From NCBI GenBank assembly GCA_022508535.1, contig JAFLUZ010000009.1:3480-67479 (forward strand): DNA of 64,000 nucleotides, in the 5' to 3' direction. The first letter of the stretch is position 1. Each line of letters begins with the position of its first letter. The translations under genes and the position numbers were made by a program. Below the pieces are notes generated by a model that had not been told where the DNA came from, searched no databases, and saw only the letters and a list, made by a program, of their open reading frames with translations. Shown here piece by piece: positions 1,340 to 41,174 of the stretch. This DNA is from Erysipelotrichales bacterium (GTDB lineage: Bacteria; Bacillota_I; Bacilli_A; RFN20; CAG-826).

Positions 1340-3295
1340 TTAATAATATCCAAGTGTAATACCCATTCCGAAGAAATATACTTGGAGATAATCGCCTTCA
1401 AATAATCCCATATTAACATTTGGTGGATAGAATGGTATTTTTTCTCCATTGCTAACATCTGTATACAAACCCTTATGATCTGTGAATGCATATCCTTTTG
1501 TGCCACAACCTTGAAGTATAACGTTTGCAGCAGAATTTGCTGAAACTCTATCCATAAATCCTCTAAATTCTGCGTCGGTTTCTCCAAAATCAAATGCAGG
1601 GTTATTATCAAATTGAATGCTTCCTTTAATGTTCAATACTCCTTCAGGCATTGCATCCATACTTCCATCTTTATTTACGCAAATAAGATTGATTAATTTG
1701 ATTGGCTCTCCAGCATCATCAACAATAGTAGGATCTGTTTGTAAGATTGTTCTATTAGTGTTGACTCCATACATTTGTCCAAGTGCTGCAAGATTAGGAT
1801 CTCTAAAGATAGTGTCTAATTGTTTAATTTGTTGTGCTGCTGCTACTGCACCAAATGATGAGAACCATCCTTCAGTACCTGCGACCAAACTTTCTAATTT
1901 ACAATTTTCAAATTTTGTACTTGGAACACTTTCGCTAGACTTACCAATATTGGTGTGATCTTGTAATACAACTGGACCACCTGCTCCAATCATTTCAGAA
2001 TTCTTGCCAACTAAGTTTCCGCCCCAGCTATATATAAAGCTATTGTAGTTATCGTAAGATTTACAATAATTAACAACATAATCACTATGTGCATTTTGTG
2101 TGAAGTATGTAATAAACCACGCTCTTGTAATTACATTTTCAGCCAATGCTTTCATGTCATGAGTTTTGTTAAATATTAAGCCCCCGCCCAAATCGGTATC
2201 TTCTTTTCTTTGAGCGTTTCCAAAAATATTAATATCTCTATAAGTAAATTGCTTATCATATGCTCCATTTTTTGGTTCTGCTCTGAATGCTACTGCGTGT
2301 GATATTACTAAACGTGTTTCATCTTCTTCATGATCTCTTTCCCTTTTAACTAATGGGAAACCAGTAAAGTTCAAAGTGAAGTAATTACCATATAAAGCAA
2401 AGTCTTCATCTGATGTGTCAAATTGACGTAAATACAATTCTGCATAGTCACGAAGTGAGCCTACAACGCCTTCTCCTTTAGGTAAATCCTCGTCACCTTC
2501 ATTGTAGAAGAAAACTGAAGGAACATCATTTTCTGTGACTTTTATATCATTATGTAAAACAATAGAATTTGGTTTATAATCTGGATCCAAACCATTTTCT
2601 TCTTTAAATGCTTTCCATGCTTTGCCTTGATCATTTGTTCTATTATCATAATAGCCTAATTCTTTTGGTGCATAAGCATTAAAGCCATCTACAACTTTAA
2701 CAACAATATCTGCGTAATAATCTTCATCGCCTTTTTGGCTATTTGATAATCCTTCTGGAGCAACTACAATTTTGAAAGTTTCTCCTACTGCTTCTTCTTT
2801 AAAATCAATATCACAATTTTTATTGTCAATTGATTCGACATATCTAGCAAGATCATTTTCTCCTAAAGCAACAAATGCATCGCTATCATTTTTCTTTAAA
2901 ATCTCAATTTCATATGACCATTCACTTGGAATAGCAGGCATTAGATTTTCATCTAGAAAATCCACTCTAGGCTTTACATTAAATTTGTTGTCATCACCAA
3001 CAGTGTATTCTCTTGTTCTGTCATAAAATTCTGTTTGTTTGTTTGTTTTTTCTTGTCTGTTTGTTTTAAATGTTTCAAAAGATTGTTTTTCTGATACACG
3101 CACTACAATATAAGAATGTAATGGAGCATCACTTCCTGTAGAATTTGATTGTGAATTAGAAGTAGGTGTTGATACCGATGATGGTACAGATGGTTGATTG
3201 ACGCTTTCAGATGTTGAAGTTTCGTCTCCACAACCGGTTAGTCCAAAGACTGTCCCTACCATTGCTAATCCTAATAAAAAGTTTCTTCTCTTCAT
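1340..3295 (-). CDS. Large secreted lipoprotein of unknown function (651 aa)
   Basis: The N-terminus MKRRNFLLGLAMVGTVFGLTGCGDE has a signal peptide and lipobox Cys, followed by a Ser/Thr-rich linker. An AGGAGG RBS sits at 3303-3308. It is the last gene of the ABC-like operon. Confidence 0.6.
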   Translation of the reverse strand: MKRRNFLLGLAMVGTVFGLTGCGDETSTSESVNQPSVPSSVSTPTSNSQSNSTGSDAPLHSYIVVRVSEKQSFETFKTNRQEKTNKQTEFYDRTREYTVGDDNKFNVKPRVDFLDENLMPAIPSEWSYEIEILKKNDSDAFVALGENDLARYVESIDNKNCDIDFKEEAVGETFKIVVAPEGLSNSQKGDEDYYADIVVKVVDGFNAYAPKELGYYDNRTNDQGKAWKAFKEENGLDPDYKPNSIVLHNDIKVTENDVPSVFFYNEGDEDLPKGEGVVGSLRDYAELYLRQFDTSDEDFALYGNYFTLNFTGFPLVKRERDHEEDETRLVISHAVAFRAEPKNGAYDKQFTYRDINIFGNAQRKEDTDLGGGLIFNKTHDMKALAENVITRAWFITYFTQNAHSDYVVNYCKSYDNYNSFIYSWGGNLVGKNSEMIGAGGPVVLQDHTNIGKSSESVPSTKFENCKLESLVAGTEGWFSSFGAVAAAQQIKQLDTIFRDPNLAALGQMYGVNTNRTILQTDPTIVDDAGEPIKLINLICVNKDGSMDAMPEGVLNIKGSIQFDNNPAFDFGETDAEFRGFMDRVSANSAANVILQGCGTKGYAFTDHKGLYTDVSNGEKIPFYPPNVNMGLFEGDYLQVYFFGMGITLGYY

Positions 3296-28293: not shown

Positions 28294-28776
28294 TTATTTG
28301 TGGTATGTTTCATTATTTAAAATTTTAAATGCTCGATAAATCTGTTCAAGAAGAATTATTCTTGTCATCTGGTGTGTAAAAGTCATTTTTGACAAAAGAA
28401 GTCTTTCATTCCCTCTTTTTCTGACATTTTCACCTAATCCTAATGACCCACCAATAACAAACGTGAGAGAACTTTTTCCATTTGTCATAAGCATATCAAG
28501 ATGTTTAGCAAAATCTAATGAATCATATTCTTTACTTTCTTTAAAATCAAGAAGAATAACATATTCATTCTCTTTTATTTTTGATAATATTTTTTCTCCT
28601 TCTTTTTCTTTAACCATTGCATCTAAGCTATCGTTTGAGTTTTTAGCAATTGTTTCATCACTTACTTCAAAAATTTCTAAACAACAATATGGTTTTAAAC
28701 GCTTAATATACTCGTTTATAGCTTCTACAAAAAAAGATTCTTTAATCTTTCCTACAGTTATTAATTTAATTTTCAT
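28294..28776 (-). CDS. rlmH: 23S rRNA (pseudouridine1915-N3)-methyltransferase
   Basis: MKIKLITVGKIKESF... is the SPOUT RlmH family. The start ATG overlaps the upstream stop (ATGA). The ORF-track start at 28824 is an artefactual upstream extension. Confidence 0.8.
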   Translation of the reverse strand: MKIKLITVGKIKESFFVEAINEYIKRLKPYCCLEIFEVSDETIAKNSNDSLDAMVKEKEGEKILSKIKENEYVILLDFKESKEYDSLDFAKHLDMLMTNGKSSLTFVIGGSLGLGENVRKRGNERLLLSKMTFTHQMTRIILLEQIYRAFKILNNETYHK

Positions 28777-29528
28777 ACAATTACTTTTCCACCAGATAAA
28801 GATTCCCTTTGATATGCCGCACAAATTTTAATACTGCTTATATTACCATATCTTGAATTTAAAATTTCTTTATATGTGTTTAACGCAACTTCATGAGTAT
28901 TTGCTTCTTCAGACAAATGCATTAATACTAATTCTTTCGTGTTTTCGCCAATAATTTCCGACATATACATGGCGGAATCTTCATTAGATAAATGACCATT
29001 ATCGCCAATAATTCTCATAATTAATTGTGCAGGTCTATTTGTTTCAAAAAGCATTTTTACATTATGATTACTTTCAATGCATACGTAATCAGGATTTTTC
29101 ATATAGCTTAAATTTCTTTCTGAAATATAACCTGTATCTGTCATATACACTAATTTTTCATTATCTGCCTCTAATATAAAACCAATTGGATTCGTTGCAT
29201 CATGCGAAGTCGCTAATACTGTTACTTTAAAACCAGCAATATCATAGGTCTCATAAATATTTAAAATATTCTCTTCTGGCACATCATATGTGCCTTTTGC
29301 ACAATAAATTAATTCACGATTAAAGAAGCATGCACCTTTAATGTGATCTGTATGTTCATGCGTGATGAGTAAAGCCTCAATATCTTCAAAACGCAAAGAA
29401 TATTTACTTAATTGTTCTTTTTCATATTTTAAAGTAACACCCATATCAATTTGAAGAAGTCTTCCATCATTAGTTTGGAAAACAGCGGAGTTTCCTTTTG
29501 ATCCACTCGCTAAAATATAGTAACGCAT
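28773..29528 (-). CDS. MBL-fold metallo-hydrolase (WalJ/YycJ-like)
   Basis: HEHTDH motif, and a conserved position between dnaB and rlmH. Confidence 0.7.
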   Translation of the reverse strand: MRYYILASGSKGNSAVFQTNDGRLLQIDMGVTLKYEKEQLSKYSLRFEDIEALLITHEHTDHIKGACFFNRELIYCAKGTYDVPEENILNIYETYDIAGFKVTVLATSHDATNPIGFILEADNEKLVYMTDTGYISERNLSYMKNPDYVCIESNHNVKMLFETNRPAQLIMRIIGDNGHLSNEDSAMYMSEIIGENTKELVLMHLSEEANTHEVALNTYKEILNSRYGNISSIKICAAYQRESLSGGKVIV

Positions 29529-35834: not shown

Positions 35835-37889
35835 TTAAACCCGATTTTTGTTATTTATATCATTCATTATCACATCGAGAATCATTCGCTTGATATACCT
35901 AGCCCCCGAGGTCTTAACTTTCTCCTCATTTAAAGACAACTTTTCTAAAATATTTAAAGTTGTATCATCACTTAAATCGCGATTACATGCGTATTTTTTG
36001 CATATTTCCTTTGATGTTTCTAGGTCTATATAATTAAATTCCACAATTGATGTTATCCGATTTAAGAATTCGTTTCTAAAGAATGCAAGAAGATTTTTAT
36101 ATGTATTATTTCCTACATTTCCTGACTCGTTTTGTCCAATATTGAAATTCATTTTGCTATCGTAATCCTCATGCCCAGCATTACTTGTCATAATAAAGAT
36201 CACATTATGGCAATTTATAATATTGTTGTGTGAATCTATAAAATATCCTTCATCAAAAATATTTAAAAAGAAATCCAATACTTCAACACTAGCTTTATCA
36301 ACTTCATCTAATAAAACTACACAGTTAGGATGATTTTTAATTTTTCTAACAAAACTAGTTAAATTTTCACTATCTTGATATCCCGGTGCTGCTCCAATTA
36401 ATCTATTAATAGACGTGTGGTCTTGAAAGCAAGCCATATCAAGTTTTATTAGACGCTCTGCACTTTGATAGTATTCTTTTGCAATTATCTTCGCACATTC
36501 GGTCTTACCAACGCCACTCGGTCCTACAAAAAGCATTGTTGCTAGTGGTGTATTTTCATTATTAAGTCCATATTCAACGCTAAGTAATGTTTTATAAATC
36601 GTTTCAATGGCTTTGCTTTGTCCATATATTTCTTTTTCCAACTCTTTTTTTACTTTTAGAGCTTTTGGTTCTTTAGTAATCGATACGTTATAGAATTTTT
36701 CAATCATTTTATTGATGTCATTTTTTGTTAGTTGCTTATCCGACATTACACAACTATTATCTAAAATATCTAAAGCTTTATCTGGAAAGGATTGATTAGG
36801 AACAAACTCCTCAGCCATTTCAACGATATATTTGGTCATCTCATCGTCAATTGTGATTTTATAATAGTCTTCATAAATTGGTTTCAAATTAGTTAGTATA
36901 TCAAGCGTTTCTTCTTTACTAGAAGGATCAACAAAGATAATTTGGAACCTTCGATTTAATGCTTTATCTTTTAAAAAGATATTATGATATTCATCACTTG
37001 TTGTTGCCCCAATGATTTGAATATCCCCACGTGATAAATATGGTTTAAGAATGTTACTTGCGTCAATAGCGCCTTCTGCACCACCAGCTTTTATAATATT
37101 ATGGATTTCATCAATAAAAATAATTGCATTTCCATCTTCGTTTACATTCTTAATAATCTTTTTTAGTTTATCTTCAAATTCTCCTCTATATTTTGTTCCA
37201 CCAACAACAGAGGCAATGTCTAATTCATATATTCTCTTACTTTCTAAACCTGGTACTTTGTTATCAGCAATTAATCGTGCTAATTCTTCTACAATTGCAG
37301 TTTTCCCAACCCCAGGTGCACCAACTAAGATTGCATTTGGTTTATTTCGTCTTCTTAATGCTAAAATTAATTGTTGTAGTTCGTTTTTTCTCCCAATCAA
37401 AGGATCCTTTTTAATTTTCGATAAATCATGTAAATCAATTATTTTATCCAATTCACTATGTTTTTTTTGATTTTTTATTAGTGTTGCTAATAACATCGCA
37501 GAATCTACATGGTTTTTATTAAATATTTCTTTACAAATTCCAGTCAAATTCTTCAAAAAAGAAATAAGCATTACATTTACTGACACTTTATCTTCTTTAT
37601 ATTCTTTGCTAATAGTCTGAGCTTCATCTAATAATTTTTTGAAGCTATCGTCATATTCCATAAAGAAAATATCTTGCTTCTGTTCGGCTTCGAAATATTT
37701 AACATCATTGACGACGCTTTTAAAGGTAATACCATACTTTTTAAGCATGACCGTCATTAGATTGTCTGGTATTTTTAAAACTGCTAATAAAAAATGTTCA
37801 CTACCGATAGAGTTATGTGATAAATCAAAAGATAACGACTCGGCAGAAGATATAACTCTTTGTGCTTCAAGGCAAAATTTTTCAAGCAT
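35835..37889 (-). CDS. Clp/Hsp100-family ATPase with two AAA+ modules and a Clp_N N-terminal repeat (compact ClpC/ClpE-like, 684 aa)
   Basis: AAA1 Walker A GAPGVGKTA and Walker B IIFIDEIH. AAA2 Walker A GPSGVGKTE and Walker B VVLLDEVDKA. Confidence 0.75.
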   Translation of the reverse strand: MLEKFCLEAQRVISSAESLSFDLSHNSIGSEHFLLAVLKIPDNLMTVMLKKYGITFKSVVNDVKYFEAEQKQDIFFMEYDDSFKKLLDEAQTISKEYKEDKVSVNVMLISFLKNLTGICKEIFNKNHVDSAMLLATLIKNQKKHSELDKIIDLHDLSKIKKDPLIGRKNELQQLILALRRRNKPNAILVGAPGVGKTAIVEELARLIADNKVPGLESKRIYELDIASVVGGTKYRGEFEDKLKKIIKNVNEDGNAIIFIDEIHNIIKAGGAEGAIDASNILKPYLSRGDIQIIGATTSDEYHNIFLKDKALNRRFQIIFVDPSSKEETLDILTNLKPIYEDYYKITIDDEMTKYIVEMAEEFVPNQSFPDKALDILDNSCVMSDKQLTKNDINKMIEKFYNVSITKEPKALKVKKELEKEIYGQSKAIETIYKTLLSVEYGLNNENTPLATMLFVGPSGVGKTECAKIIAKEYYQSAERLIKLDMACFQDHTSINRLIGAAPGYQDSENLTSFVRKIKNHPNCVVLLDEVDKASVEVLDFFLNIFDEGYFIDSHNNIINCHNVIFIMTSNAGHEDYDSKMNFNIGQNESGNVGNNTYKNLLAFFRNEFLNRITSIVEFNYIDLETSKEICKKYACNRDLSDDTTLNILEKLSLNEEKVKTSGARYIKRMILDVIMNDINNKNRV

Positions 37890-38042
37890 ATTTTCTCTCC
37901 TAAAATAATTTTATGTTAACGCTCTTTAATTTTTGCCAATATATTTTATTTTATACAAAATAAAAAACAAAAAAAATATCGAACAAAGGTTAAATATAAT
38001 AATGCTAAATCAATGTGTAACTCAGCATATATAAATCACTTA

Positions 38043-39479
38043 TTATTTTTTACGATTTGATAGTAGTTTCCTAATAAGAGTTAATTGGTTTAGTTTATCA
38101 TCAACATCGCTATAAGTATTGAGTTCATTTTCAACATAATCATATTCGCGCAAAACTTCTTCTGATTTTAGTAATTCATATTTACTACACATATCAATAT
38201 AATTGATTTTTGCTATAAAGTATTCATATGACAAGGCATTCCTTACTGTCACATTAAACTTCGCATTTTTTAACCATCGTTCTCTAGTTTTTATAGCTTT
38301 TTTATAATATTTCGTAGCTTCTTCTGTATTTTTTTGCGCCGCATACGTTCTTGCGATATTATAGGTTAAAAAACCAGTCCACATTTGCATCGACATGTCT
38401 ACTCTATTAACATATTCTAATGCTTTATTAAATGAATCTTGTGCCAATTGCAAATATGTATCATTATTTTTCAATCCTGATAACCTTAAGTATGTTAATC
38501 CAAGGTAATCATAATATACAATTATTATTAAAGGGTTTAATTCAACTGCTTCAGGAATCCCTTCAAACAAAAAATCATCAAGCAAATTTTCATATAATTC
38601 CGTAATTTCAGTAAAATTGTTTCTTTTAATACGAGTATATTCAATAATATTTGACGCAAGATTTTTAGTAAAATTTAAAATATCTGTCCTGCCATAGTAA
38701 TTAATATCAGATTCTTTATAATTTGATACAAGTAATGCGGTATTTGTCATAAAGTTATTAACTTCTTGAATCCGTCCAAAGATCGGTAAAAATCCTATTC
38801 TTTCAAAAAGATATATGCATCTTTCATCAAAATGTGGTAAACTCGCGCATTCGTTATACCAATGCGTCAATATTTCAGAAAAAAAACTTACTCCATCTTT
38901 AGAAGTTTGGTTATCATCAACAAATATATTTTCATAATCTACATAATATTCTTTTCGTGTAAACAATCTATCGTATTGTGGTATTTGCTCTAAATTGATG
39001 TTACCACCAATCGAATTCTTGCTAAATTGCAGCAATTTAGAGATTATATCATCTATAACTGTTTGAAAATTAGACGCATTAAATTGTCGAATTTCAAGGC
39101 TGTTTATATCAGATGGTAATTCTATACTTTCAGAATGAATATCAAAATCGCTCAGAATAAGGCACCTTTCTCTCCCAAGTTGAACCAAAGCCATTCCGAG
39201 TTCAAATATAACATTTTGTCTCAATCTATATTTGGTGCCGAATTCCGTGCTTAAACAATCATCGGCGGTTAAAAAAGCAACGCAAAATTCACTTTCTTTA
39301 AACAAACTTATGACATTTGATAGTAATTCTGTTGTCAATATACTATCCATTATAATTTTTGATGAAAGTGGATATCGCTCAATTTCGGAGAAACTTTCAA
39401 TCTTACTGTTTAATACATCGGCATATTTTCTACCACTGCCACCATAAATAATTGAAACAGTTTTGTACTTTCGTATCAT
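38043..39479 (-). CDS. Stand-alone protein with an N-terminal TIR-like domain (PF10137/CAP12-type) and C-terminal TPR-like repeats, a candidate defence or signalling effector
   Basis: N-terminus VSIIYGGSGRKYADVLNSKIE...EFCVAFLTADDCL...RQNVIFELGMALVQLGRERCLIL matches my recollection of the PF10137 TIR-like core (FxL...DD...R.NV.FELG...LGreR..il). The C-terminal third is helical TPR-like (AQDSFNKALEY...EEATKYYKKAIKT). It has its own flanking AT-rich intergenic regions. Confidence 0.55.
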   Translation of the reverse strand: MIRKYKTVSIIYGGSGRKYADVLNSKIESFSEIERYPLSSKIIMDSILTTELLSNVISLFKESEFCVAFLTADDCLSTEFGTKYRLRQNVIFELGMALVQLGRERCLILSDFDIHSESIELPSDINSLEIRQFNASNFQTVIDDIISKLLQFSKNSIGGNINLEQIPQYDRLFTRKEYYVDYENIFVDDNQTSKDGVSFFSEILTHWYNECASLPHFDERCIYLFERIGFLPIFGRIQEVNNFMTNTALLVSNYKESDINYYGRTDILNFTKNLASNIIEYTRIKRNNFTEITELYENLLDDFLFEGIPEAVELNPLIIIVYYDYLGLTYLRLSGLKNNDTYLQLAQDSFNKALEYVNRVDMSMQMWTGFLTYNIARTYAAQKNTEEATKYYKKAIKTRERWLKNAKFNVTVRNALSYEYFIAKINYIDMCSKYELLKSEEVLREYDYVENELNTYSDVDDKLNQLTLIRKLLSNRKK

Positions 39480-39569
39480 TAATAGCGCCTCCTTTAATAG
39501 GGTAACTCATCTTTAACATCTTATCACGAACATATACTCATTTCAATTTAAGTGTTAATCGATAATCTA

Positions 39570-39602
39570 TAAAAAAATAGGATAGTCAATACTATCCTAT
39601 TA
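39570..39602 (-). terminator. Rho-independent terminator after lysS
   Basis: AATAGGATAGT / ACTATCCTATT stem followed by a U-run on the minus strand. Confidence 0.55.
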
Positions 39603-39622
39603 ATTGTTTTTTGTTGTTTATT

Positions 39623-41125
39623 TTAATCAATTGGTTTCATGCAAGGGAATAAAATAACTTCACGGATTGACGATTGTTCAGTTAATAACATAACTAATCT
39701 ATCAATACCCATTCCGACACCACCACATGGTGGCATACCATATTCTAATGATTCAACAAAGTCTACATCCATTTGACTTGCTTCATCATTACCAGCATCT
39801 CTTTCCTTTAATTGTTCAATAAATCTATTCTTTTGATCAATTGGGTCATTTAATTCAGTATACGCATTCGCGAACTCGTGTCCACCAATGTATAATTCAA
39901 ACCTTTGAACAAATCTTGGGTCTGTTGTATCAATTTTAGTTAATGGAGAAATTTCTACTGGATGACCACATAAGAATGTTGGTTGAATTAGTTTAGATTC
40001 ACAATATGTTTCAAAGAAAGCATTGATGATATGTCCTATTGTAAAGTGTTTTTCAACAGGAACATTGTGCTTTTTAGCAAATCCAATAGCTTCATCAAGT
40101 GTATAATTATTTTCTTTAAAATCTACGCCTGTTTCTTGCTTAATCATTTCACACATTGTTACGACTCTAAATGGTTTAGATAAATCAATCTTTTCTCCTT
40201 CAGGATCAAAGATATTCATAAATTCAGTCTTATTTGCAACTGTTTCAGCAGCGTATCTAATCATGCCTTCAGTAATTCTCATCATTGAAGATAAATCACC
40301 ATATGCTTCATATAACTCAATTGTAGTAAATTCTGGATTGTGAGTTAAATCCATACCTTCATTTCTAAATAATCTGCCAATCTCGTATACTTTTTCTAGT
40401 CCACCAACAATCAAACGCTTTAATGGTAATTCCGTTGCAATTCTCATATAGAAATCTTTATTTAGAGCGTTATGATGGGTTACGAATGGGCGAGCAGTTG
40501 CCCCACCTTGAATTGGTTGAAGTACTGGAGTATCAACTTCCATAAATCCTAAATCATCACAATACTTTTGAATAGCACGAATAATTCTTGGACGCATTAA
40601 TGCAATTCGCTTTGCTTCTTCATTCATTATTAAGTCAACATATCTTCTTCTATAACGTTCTTCTTTATCTGTTAATCCATGAAACTTTTCAGGTAAAGGA
40701 CGCAAAGCTTTACTTAAATGAGTATATTCTAAACATTTAACAGTTGGCTCGCCTGTTCTTGTTAACATTACAAGACCTTTGACACCAACAATATCGCCAA
40801 CATCAGCCATCTTGAATAAGTTATATTGATCTTCACCTACTGTATCAATGCTAATGTAAACTTGTTGCTTTCCTTTAACATCTTGAATAGCAAAGAAACT
40901 TGCTTTTCCCATTTTACGAATAAACATAATTCGTCCAGCAATAGATACATGCAAGTCTAATTCTTTAACTTGTTCTTCCGTTAAACTAGCGATTTTGTCT
41001 TTAATATCTTTTGACCATTCTGTACGATCATAAGCTTGTCCAAAAGGATCAATATTAAGTTCTTTTAACTTCTCTACTTTTTGTCTTCTTACTATTTCTT
41101 GATCATTTAATTCTTTTTCTTCCAT
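39623..41125 (-). CDS. lysS: Lysine--tRNA ligase (class II)
   Basis: OB-fold N-terminus and class II motifs (e.g. GGLEKVYEIGRLFRNEG). The ATG at 41125 has a GAGAGGTG RBS. Confidence 0.9.
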   Translation of the reverse strand: MEEKELNDQEIVRRQKVEKLKELNIDPFGQAYDRTEWSKDIKDKIASLTEEQVKELDLHVSIAGRIMFIRKMGKASFFAIQDVKGKQQVYISIDTVGEDQYNLFKMADVGDIVGVKGLVMLTRTGEPTVKCLEYTHLSKALRPLPEKFHGLTDKEERYRRRYVDLIMNEEAKRIALMRPRIIRAIQKYCDDLGFMEVDTPVLQPIQGGATARPFVTHHNALNKDFYMRIATELPLKRLIVGGLEKVYEIGRLFRNEGMDLTHNPEFTTIELYEAYGDLSSMMRITEGMIRYAAETVANKTEFMNIFDPEGEKIDLSKPFRVVTMCEMIKQETGVDFKENNYTLDEAIGFAKKHNVPVEKHFTIGHIINAFFETYCESKLIQPTFLCGHPVEISPLTKIDTTDPRFVQRFELYIGGHEFANAYTELNDPIDQKNRFIEQLKERDAGNDEASQMDVDFVESLEYGMPPCGGVGMGIDRLVMLLTEQSSIREVILFPCMKPID

Positions 41126-41174
41126 TGATAACACCTCTCAACGCTTTCACATTGTAACAAATATTTTATAATAT

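Follow-up and report, generated by a model that had tools for sequence, protein, structure and literature searches.

The 64-kb stretch of DNA analyzed here (64,000 nucleotides of an Erysipelotrichales contig, JAFLUZ010000009.1, referred to below as the window) contains on its reverse strand, at 38043..39479, a gene whose product joins an N-terminal TIR domain of the CAP12/Pycsar clade to a C-terminal helical repeat module that resembles tetratricopeptide repeats (TPRs). This TIR-TPR gene stands alone and has been inserted at a variable site between lysS and a Clp ATPase gene. The interpretation favored here, with a little more confidence than doubt, is that of a horizontally acquired, self-contained single-gene sensor-effector, most likely acting in abortive-infection phage defense, in which a trigger would cluster the TIR domains and nicotinamide adenine dinucleotide (NAD+) would be depleted. 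The gene is one complete open reading frame (ORF) encoding 478 residues plus a stop codon, with an ATG start, as judged from the ORF list, its homologues, and the ratio of nonsynonymous to synonymous substitution rates (dN/dS). The structure model of the 478-residue protein (pLDDT 90, pTM 0.89) shows two domains in a defined arrangement, connected by a linker of residues 153–195 (38895..39023, reverse strand) in which modeled secondary structure is sparse and mean column conservation is lowest (0.49 vs 0.66 in the TIR domain). A reading made earlier from the sequence only had proposed a PF10137-type N terminus, a TPR-like C terminus, the absence of a P-loop, and a location between lysS and a Clp ATPase gene, and all four are borne out; neither a Walker A motif nor a nucleoside triphosphatase (NTPase) match in Pfam is present in the protein.

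The TIR domain comprises residues 1–152 (39024..39479, reverse strand). The match of residues 50–130 to PF10137, the TIR family of CAP12 and Pycsar effectors, reaches 51.6 bits (E=1.1e-13) and so exceeds the gathering threshold of 24.7. The two other Pfam families that the sequence-only reading had named for comparison, PF08937 and PF13676, do not match the protein at E<=1. The motifs that it had quoted are all present: VSIIYG at residues 8–13, FLTADD at 69–74, and RQNVIFELGMALVQLGRERCLIL at 87–109. Three PADLOC models, those of the TIR effector of CBASS (an antiphage signaling system based on cyclic oligonucleotides), of PycTIR from Pycsar (pyrimidine cyclase system for antiphage resistance; E=5e-8), and of PDC-S35, match the same ~100 residues (~51–150) and nothing beyond them. 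The NCBIfam equivalog models of Cap12 score only 30–35 bits (NF050171, 34.8 bits), where the cut-off is 450, and because these scores are so far below the cut-off, the protein is not a Cap12 orthologue. Structural comparisons return TIR-STING structures as the best Foldseek matches, and the PycTIR structure (PDB 8JSJ) is matched by profile at E=2e-8. Within residues 1–150, matches to PF10137, TIR-STING, and PycTIR are present. PF10137 is also matched by 48 of 60 distant family members.

In the TIR-STING protein SfSTING, the NAD+ glycohydrolase (NADase) pocket is composed of R78, N80, and the catalytic E84 and is completed by D110 of the opposing TIR domain (PMC9402430). These four residues align by profile with R87, N89, E93, and D124 of the window protein, each of which is invariant among 115 family members. 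In superfamily members of 17–30% identity, N89 is retained in 53 of 55 and E93 in 53 of 54, and the position of D124 is occupied by Asp in 47 and by Asn in 8. The R-x-N-V-V-F-E and L-P-x-D motifs align with the solved TIR-STING and PycTIR structures in both profile and fold matches, and the catalytic Glu that had been sought in the FELG helix is E93. Judged from the HMM (hidden Markov model) match and the pocket residues together, the window TIR domain is a member of the PF10137 family, and these residues suggest that it is probably an NAD+ glycohydrolase.

The C-terminal module, residues 196–478 (38046..38894, reverse strand), is the presumed sensor and oligomerization domain. Both the structure model and the fold search identify it as a TPR-like solenoid, though the Pfam TPR models score below their gathering thresholds: TPR_12 (26.2 vs 30.1), TPR_10 (25.5 vs 27.5), TPR_8 (25.4 vs 25.7), and TPR_1 (22.3 vs 27.8). 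The top fold neighbors of the module are the RRNPP peptide receptors NprR, PlcR, Rap, and AimR, with sequence identities of 6–12%. LGN, KLC, and APC subunits score almost equally, and the resemblance to RRNPP receptors may be that of a generic TPR superhelix only. The module is more divergent than the TIR head, with a mean pairwise identity of 42% vs 57%, and its near-universal residues across the superfamily are E226, R227, Y325, L328, W367, N374, R377, R399, W402, and E419.

The module and the TIR domain are found as an exclusive pair. A profile of residues 155–478, searched against 1.84 billion representatives, matched 205 proteins, nearly all of which are 475–540 residues long with a module start near residue 150–200. 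No effector domain other than PF10137 was found among 60 distant module members, and the shorter of these look N-terminally truncated. The module is thus seen with no recognizable effector besides the CAP12/Pycsar TIR domain and is not a shuffled, general-purpose sensor; its transfer onto other effectors was looked for in the profile search and in the domain scan of distant members and was not found. One module variant, P0353 (794 residues; members P0411 and P0412), has an N-terminal region of ~362 residues without a Pfam match and a Ser at the catalytic E93 position. This region may be a different or an inactivated head domain.

The slot in which the gene resides is bounded by two core genes on the same strand. 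Upstream is lysS (39623..41134), the product of which is 100% identical to a lysine--tRNA ligase of an Erysipelotrichales bacterium at NCBI and the position of which is supported by synteny. Downstream is a gene for a ClpC-type double-AAA+ ATPase (35835..37889; Pfam Clp_N, AAA, AAA_lid_9, and AAA_2), the orthologues of which are 67–98% identical in conserved synteny. Contigs for comparison were drawn from protein-database searches with the window Clp and LysS, reaching increasingly distant relatives. In a DNA alignment with one such contig, L096, similarity ends directly after the lysS stop codon and restarts ~78 nt before the start codon of clp, which delimits a lineage-specific inserted or replaced segment of ~1.65 kb from the lysS stop codon to the conserved clp leader (37968..39622, reverse strand; bounds +/- ~10 nt). 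A metagenome scan with Clp gave only relatives of <=47% identity without lysS upstream and is uninformative on the empty site.

Four states of the slot are observed. The TIR-TPR gene is present in the window, in L056 (LysS 99% identical), and in L100 (96%). The L056 copy (L056:1448-2884) has the boundaries of the window gene and 97% identity to it, and the L100 contig holds the first 90 residues only, which are 91% identical and preceded by the same upstream signals. The slot is empty, with a gap of 91–288 nt, in L096, L097, L098, and L099 (LysS 94%, 91%, 85%, and 87% identical, respectively). In L101 and L102 (LysS 90–91%), it holds a gene for a 686-residue FMN/FAD (flavin mononucleotide/flavin adenine dinucleotide) oxidoreductase (Oxidored_FMN/Pyr_redox_2), and in L103 and L104 (GCA_947625975.1; LysS 90%), it holds a 158-residue lipoprotein-like gene without a Pfam match. 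The empty-site contigs share the gene order spoIIE-tilS-ftsH-dus-lysS-clp-rpsF-ssb-rpsR-DUF2232-gdpP-rplI-dnaB as far as each contig reaches, that of L097 starting within lysS. Among the contigs compared, the TIR-TPR gene is limited to strains with LysS at least 96% identical. The slot is variable, and the TIR-TPR gene inserted in it is acquired rather than core. The possibility that it is a conserved core gene of the locus is rejected on two counts: relatives with the full gene order lack it, and in none of 26 homologue loci, searched by tblastn with the window neighbors, are lysS or clp adjacent. The suggestion that the site is a hotspot for acquired genes holds insofar as the slot is variable; the proposed tie to the rrn operon and ctsR-mcsA-mcsB of Bacillus is not supported, and close relatives simply have the short gap.

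Local signals suggest that the gene is an autonomous expression unit with its own terminator, promoter-like site, and ribosome-binding site. An intrinsic-terminator-like hairpin (39576..39601, reverse strand; 11 bp stem followed by a T run), identified by a terminator scan and inspection of the sequence, ends the lysS transcript. The hairpin lies inside the lineage-specific segment and is the same in L056 and L100, and a different hairpin is found at this position in the empty-site relative L096. A promoter-like TTGAAA-17-TAAGAT with a TG-extended -10 element precedes the gene at 39518..39546 (reverse strand); this consensus-scan call is a pattern match only, the 20 sites in the region being not clearly above the shuffled expectation of 14.4 +/- 4.9. 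A ribosome-binding site, AAAGGAGG, is read from the sequence at 39488..39495 (reverse strand), 8 nt before the ATG. Downstream of the gene and before the clp leader there is only a weak hairpin (z = -1.4), and because of this weakness, read-through into clp is possible. The upstream flank measures 143 nt and the downstream lineage-specific DNA ~75 nt, and no ORF was found in either.

The composition of the gene (29.1% GC, 0.215 GC at third codon positions) equals that of its neighbors, and no compositional anomaly relative to host or neighbors is seen. The AT-rich flanks that had been ascribed to the gene turn out to be ordinary: their GC contents of 19.6% and 25.9% lie near the 24% mean for intergenic DNA of the window, and their AT-richness therefore carries no information. 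Between the window and L056, dN/dS is 0.10 (33 synonymous and 15 non-synonymous differences), from which it follows that the gene is functional in both strains and under purifying selection. In the same comparison, dS is 0.13 for the TIR-TPR gene, about half of that for clp (0.25) and lysS (0.22). The counts are small, and the lower dS of the insert may reflect a more recent common origin, e.g., by recombination or a sweep.

Beyond the near-identical strain (97%), the family comprises ~170 full-length homologues of 471–500 residues with 39–58% identity. Their hosts are almost wholly gut or rumen Firmicutes and span classes, including Erysipelotrichales, Clostridia, Lachnospiraceae, and Oscillospiraceae, and identities across these groups are 40–58%. 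The labels of the metagenome-assembled genomes (MAGs) are Clostridiales, Oscillospiraceae, Acutalibacteraceae, Lachnospiraceae, Ca. Faecicola, Bacilli, and 'Mollicutes'; one cultured isolate, Butyrivibrio sp. AE2032, carries a homologue (WP_034451209.1), and Wenzhouxiangella and an Acidobacteria MAG are rare outliers. No paper describing the TIR-TPR family was found in the literature.

The gene also stands alone in its genomic surroundings. In accordance with the earlier claim that no cyclase or partner gene is adjacent, no cyclase and no component of CBASS, Pycsar, or Thoeris was found among the other 42 window proteins scanned, and no CD-NTase was found next to homologues. Across 26 homologue loci, the neighbors of the window gene recur in none, with the exception of one homologue beside rpsF-ssb-rpsR. 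A conserved partner gene is rejected by an all-against-all clustering of 411 neighbor ORFs, in which no family occurs in more than 4 of 25 loci, and ten operon-like neighbors have no common theme. Tandem paralogues are likewise rejected, as the family HMM matches no neighbor ORF.

In one case, a 57%-identical homologue (L057 and L058) sits in a defense-type island with a second PF10137 protein and a DUF4062-STAND protein. In this island (L057:4077-16500; the same in L058), a different 446-residue PF10137 protein is encoded immediately upstream of the homologue. Next come four unannotated genes of 365, 157, 153, and 297 codons, the first two of which overlap or abut, and farther on are genes for a 1249-residue DUF4062-STAND protein, a 92-residue RyR-domain protein, a 679-residue protein of no assigned function, and an S8 peptidase. 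The Wenzhouxiangella homologue (L022:3375-7982), which at 29% identity is the sole proteobacterial full-length member, lies 19 nt downstream of a gene for a 1535-residue TrkA_N and RyR protein. RyR domains may thus recur near the family (L022 and L057).

A mechanism can be proposed from these features. The TIR domain would be a latent NAD+ glycohydrolase with an active site of R87, N89, and E93 that is completed by D124 of a neighbor, as in TIR-STING. Because D124 must come from a second TIR domain, the enzyme would gain activity only upon packing of TIR domains against one another. The TPR-like array would fill the role that STING, SAVED, or cyclic nucleotide monophosphate-binding domains play in CBASS and Pycsar effectors: binding of a trigger by the array would lead to clustering or filament formation, which would switch on NAD+ depletion, halt the infected cell, and abort the infection. 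The most likely trigger would be a protein or peptide that the phage produces in the course of infection. The proposal follows the documented logic of TIR-STING (PMC9402430), SpbK, and DSR2, and there are precedents for NADase sensors made of one protein. SpbK is activated once a phage portal protein clusters its TIR domains (PMC12847820), and E. coli TIR-II is an experimentally validated single protein with TIR and TPR domains (PMC11350192).

Comparison with characterized systems places the protein among TIR effectors while setting its architecture apart. Similar to Cap12 of CBASS (TIR-STING, such as SfSTING; PDB 7UN8 and 9LMQ/9LMR), the window protein has a PF10137 TIR domain in which the catalytic helix and the L-P-x-D loop align residue for residue, and the logic by which clustering assembles the NADase site is probably common to both. 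Unlike Cap12, it has no STING domain by Pfam or fold, is not encoded in a CD-NTase operon, and falls below the equivalog cut-off; its sensor is a TPR-like array and its gene is alone. PycTIR (PDB 8JSJ) belongs to the same TIR clade and consists of an N-terminal cyclic-nucleotide-binding part and a C-terminal TIR domain, with a pyrimidine cyclase gene adjacent. In the window protein, by contrast, the TIR domain is N-terminal, the partner domain is composed of helical repeats, and no cyclase is present in the window or in homologue loci. The PDC-S35 model is the top PADLOC match (E=1e-13) by way of the common TIR domain; however, the PDC-S35 models have 231–278 positions with the TIR domain in their C-terminal half, and the match covers residues 58–149 only. 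In the 231-position model, positions 129–205 match residues 58–134, which falls short of a full-length match. No paper mentioning PDC-S35 was found in the literature.

The nearest architectural precedent is TIR-II, in which TIR and TPR domains are likewise combined in one polypeptide. According to its description (PMC11350192), TIR-II outnumbers all other TIR systems, and ~30% of its homologues carry an ATPase. The window family, on the other hand, is small (205 representatives) and found in Firmicutes, is never seen with an ATPase, and has a CAP12/Pycsar-type TIR domain. That the family is distinct from TIR-II is suggested indirectly by its size, its hosts, and the absence of ATPase variants, the comparison being made with TIR-II by description only. 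SpbK (B. subtilis ICEBs1) and DSR2 are also single genes that join an NADase head to a sensor domain devoid of enzymatic function, and the α-solenoid of DSR2 is described as binding the tail tube protein. Their sensor domains are unrelated to that of the window protein; the TIR domain of SpbK is C-terminal and not reported as PF10137, and DSR2 uses SIR2. BcTir/BcTpr and Thoeris VII/VIII (ThsB and ThsI) similarly combine TIR chemistry with a TPR protein, which is proposed to perceive cyclic ADP-ribose (cADPR). These systems have two genes, one for a TIR protein that makes the signal and one for a TPR protein with a nucleoside-processing or glycosidase domain of its own at the N terminus; the window domains, by contrast, are fused in one protein without a partner, and the TIR domain is of the effector clade. 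Neither ThsI nor BcTpr is among the listed PDB fold matches of the window protein. In contrast to the RRNPP receptors NprR, PlcR, Rap, and AimR, the protein has no helix-turn-helix or phosphatase output and no adjacent pro-peptide gene. In contrast to STAND, Avs, and TIR-NLR proteins, it has no P-loop NTPase, and residues 153–195 provide only a short linker between effector and repeats. What appears to be new is the permanent fusion of an effector-clade TIR domain with a TPR-like sensor of its own, in a Firmicutes family that is uncharacterized.

Several observations weigh against the sensor-effector proposal. Every characterized PF10137 TIR domain (TIR-STING and PycTIR) is a second-messenger-activated effector and none is a direct sensor. 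Module residues are conserved superfamily-wide (R377 in 59 of 60, E226 and R227 in 56 of 60, and E419 in 56 of 60 members), and because of this, a small ligand or a structural interface would fit better than arms-race recognition of a phage protein. No enrichment of defense islands around homologues is seen. No integrase, transposase, or flanking repeat was found at the insertion or in relation to slot turnover, and a prophage, plasmid, or viral origin finds no support, in that phage, plasmid, and BFVD collections contain no full-length match. The public names of homologues, 'hypothetical protein', 'TIR domain-containing protein', and 'nucleotide-binding protein', are generic.

The first two of these observations would also be expected of an orphan ligand-gated effector, in which the module binds a diffusible small molecule or short peptide made elsewhere in the genome or by a phage and the TIR NADase is the output of a split system. 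The signal could be of the cADPR or cyclic-nucleotide type or an RRNPP-like short peptide, and the conserved charged and aromatic module residues would then form one conserved ligand pocket. BcTir/BcTpr and Thoeris VII/VIII place TPR proteins in TIR signaling, the TPR part of ThsI being presumed to perceive cADPR, and the best fold neighbors of the module are peptide receptors. This alternative deserves serious consideration but is rather unlikely: neither a cyclase nor a ThsB-like TIR protein nor a CD-NTase is present in the 64-kb window, the 25 clustered loci contain no recurrent neighbor and the operon-like neighbors no shared theme, and the 75-nt and 143-nt flanks are too small for a pro-peptide ORF. 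In addition, gain of the gene alone is hard to square with the need for a separate signal generator.

A non-defense role, which we regard as unlikely, would make the protein an accessory regulator or an NAD+- or nucleotide-linked enzyme of gut Firmicutes physiology, for example in stress- or growth-phase control of NAD+ or in the production of a signaling nucleotide, with the TPR module docking on a host protein. The surroundings of homologues are compatible with such a role, as they are mainly housekeeping genes with scant defense or mobile-element signal and PADLOC matches for only a handful of 99 neighbors. Strong purifying selection, good conservation over the full length, and a composition indistinguishable from that of the host are compatible with it as well, and the position of the gene directly upstream of clpC, with a weak terminator (z = -1.4) between them, could permit co-transcription with a stress gene. 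However, the gene is patchy among near relatives and differs in location in every lineage. Moreover, the PF10137 clade consists only of immune effectors in characterized systems, the residues that make up an active site for NAD+ destruction are conserved, and one homologue lies in a clear defense-type island.

More speculative, and improbable as a specific proposal, is that the module is a true RRNPP-like peptide receptor and that a short peptide controls the TIR NADase; such a peptide could be an arbitrium-type signal of phage communication, a micro-protein encoded by a phage, or a quorum signal of the host. The RRNPP fold neighbors, the conservation of Asn, Arg, Trp, and Glu along the helices of the repeats, the restriction to Firmicutes, and the TIR-only pairing are compatible with such gating. 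If true, peptide sensing in gut Firmicutes would be linked directly to immunity by NAD+ depletion, a connection not described so far. Least probable is a selfish toxin or addiction module or an anti-bacterial effector, not serving phage defense, with the NADase restrained in cis by the helical domain, since, for all that NADase toxins are common in bacterial conflict, a solitary gene spreads without partners, and the confident inter-domain packing (pTM 0.89) is compatible with autoinhibition, no signal peptide, secretion-associated domain, nearby immunity gene, or antitoxin was found, and in TIR clade and architecture the protein resembles immune effectors and not secreted toxins.

Elsewhere, the window is dense in genes of translation and replication (rpsF, rpsR, rplI, lysS, pth, and tilS). 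A metallo-beta-lactamase-fold gene at 28773-29528 is conserved between dnaB and a SPOUT methyltransferase gene, as seen by synteny with L097:8931-9686 and L099:15283-16044. The copies in these relatives have a weak Pfam match to the anti-Pycsar protein Apyc1 (PF23023), which is probably a cross-hit between metallo-beta-lactamase-fold families in a core gene and is of note here in view of the Pycsar/CBASS clade of the window TIR domain. At the window edge, a 651-residue ORF (1340-3295, reverse strand) has no Pfam match at E<=1e-8 and no PADLOC match. A general Rfam scan, which did not include a tRNA scan, returned no family at gathering score across the 64 kb.

CAP12/Pycsar-type TIR domains have so far been known only as outputs of cyclic-nucleotide signaling. 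The finding of the same TIR head joined to a helical-repeat module in a lone gene suggests that this effector clade has also been recruited to sense triggers directly, without a messenger. Compact and well conserved, the family has a high-confidence structure model and is found in gut and rumen Firmicutes, hosts in which few defense systems have been tested. In addition, the slot provides natural, isogenic-like comparators in sister lineages that are empty or carry other cargo. The TIR-TPR protein is less a surprise than a clearly delimited candidate that lends itself to experiment. Identification of its trigger would add a new sensor specificity to the TIR immune toolkit and reveal what drives the clustering of TIR domains where STING, SAVED, and STAND scaffolds are absent.

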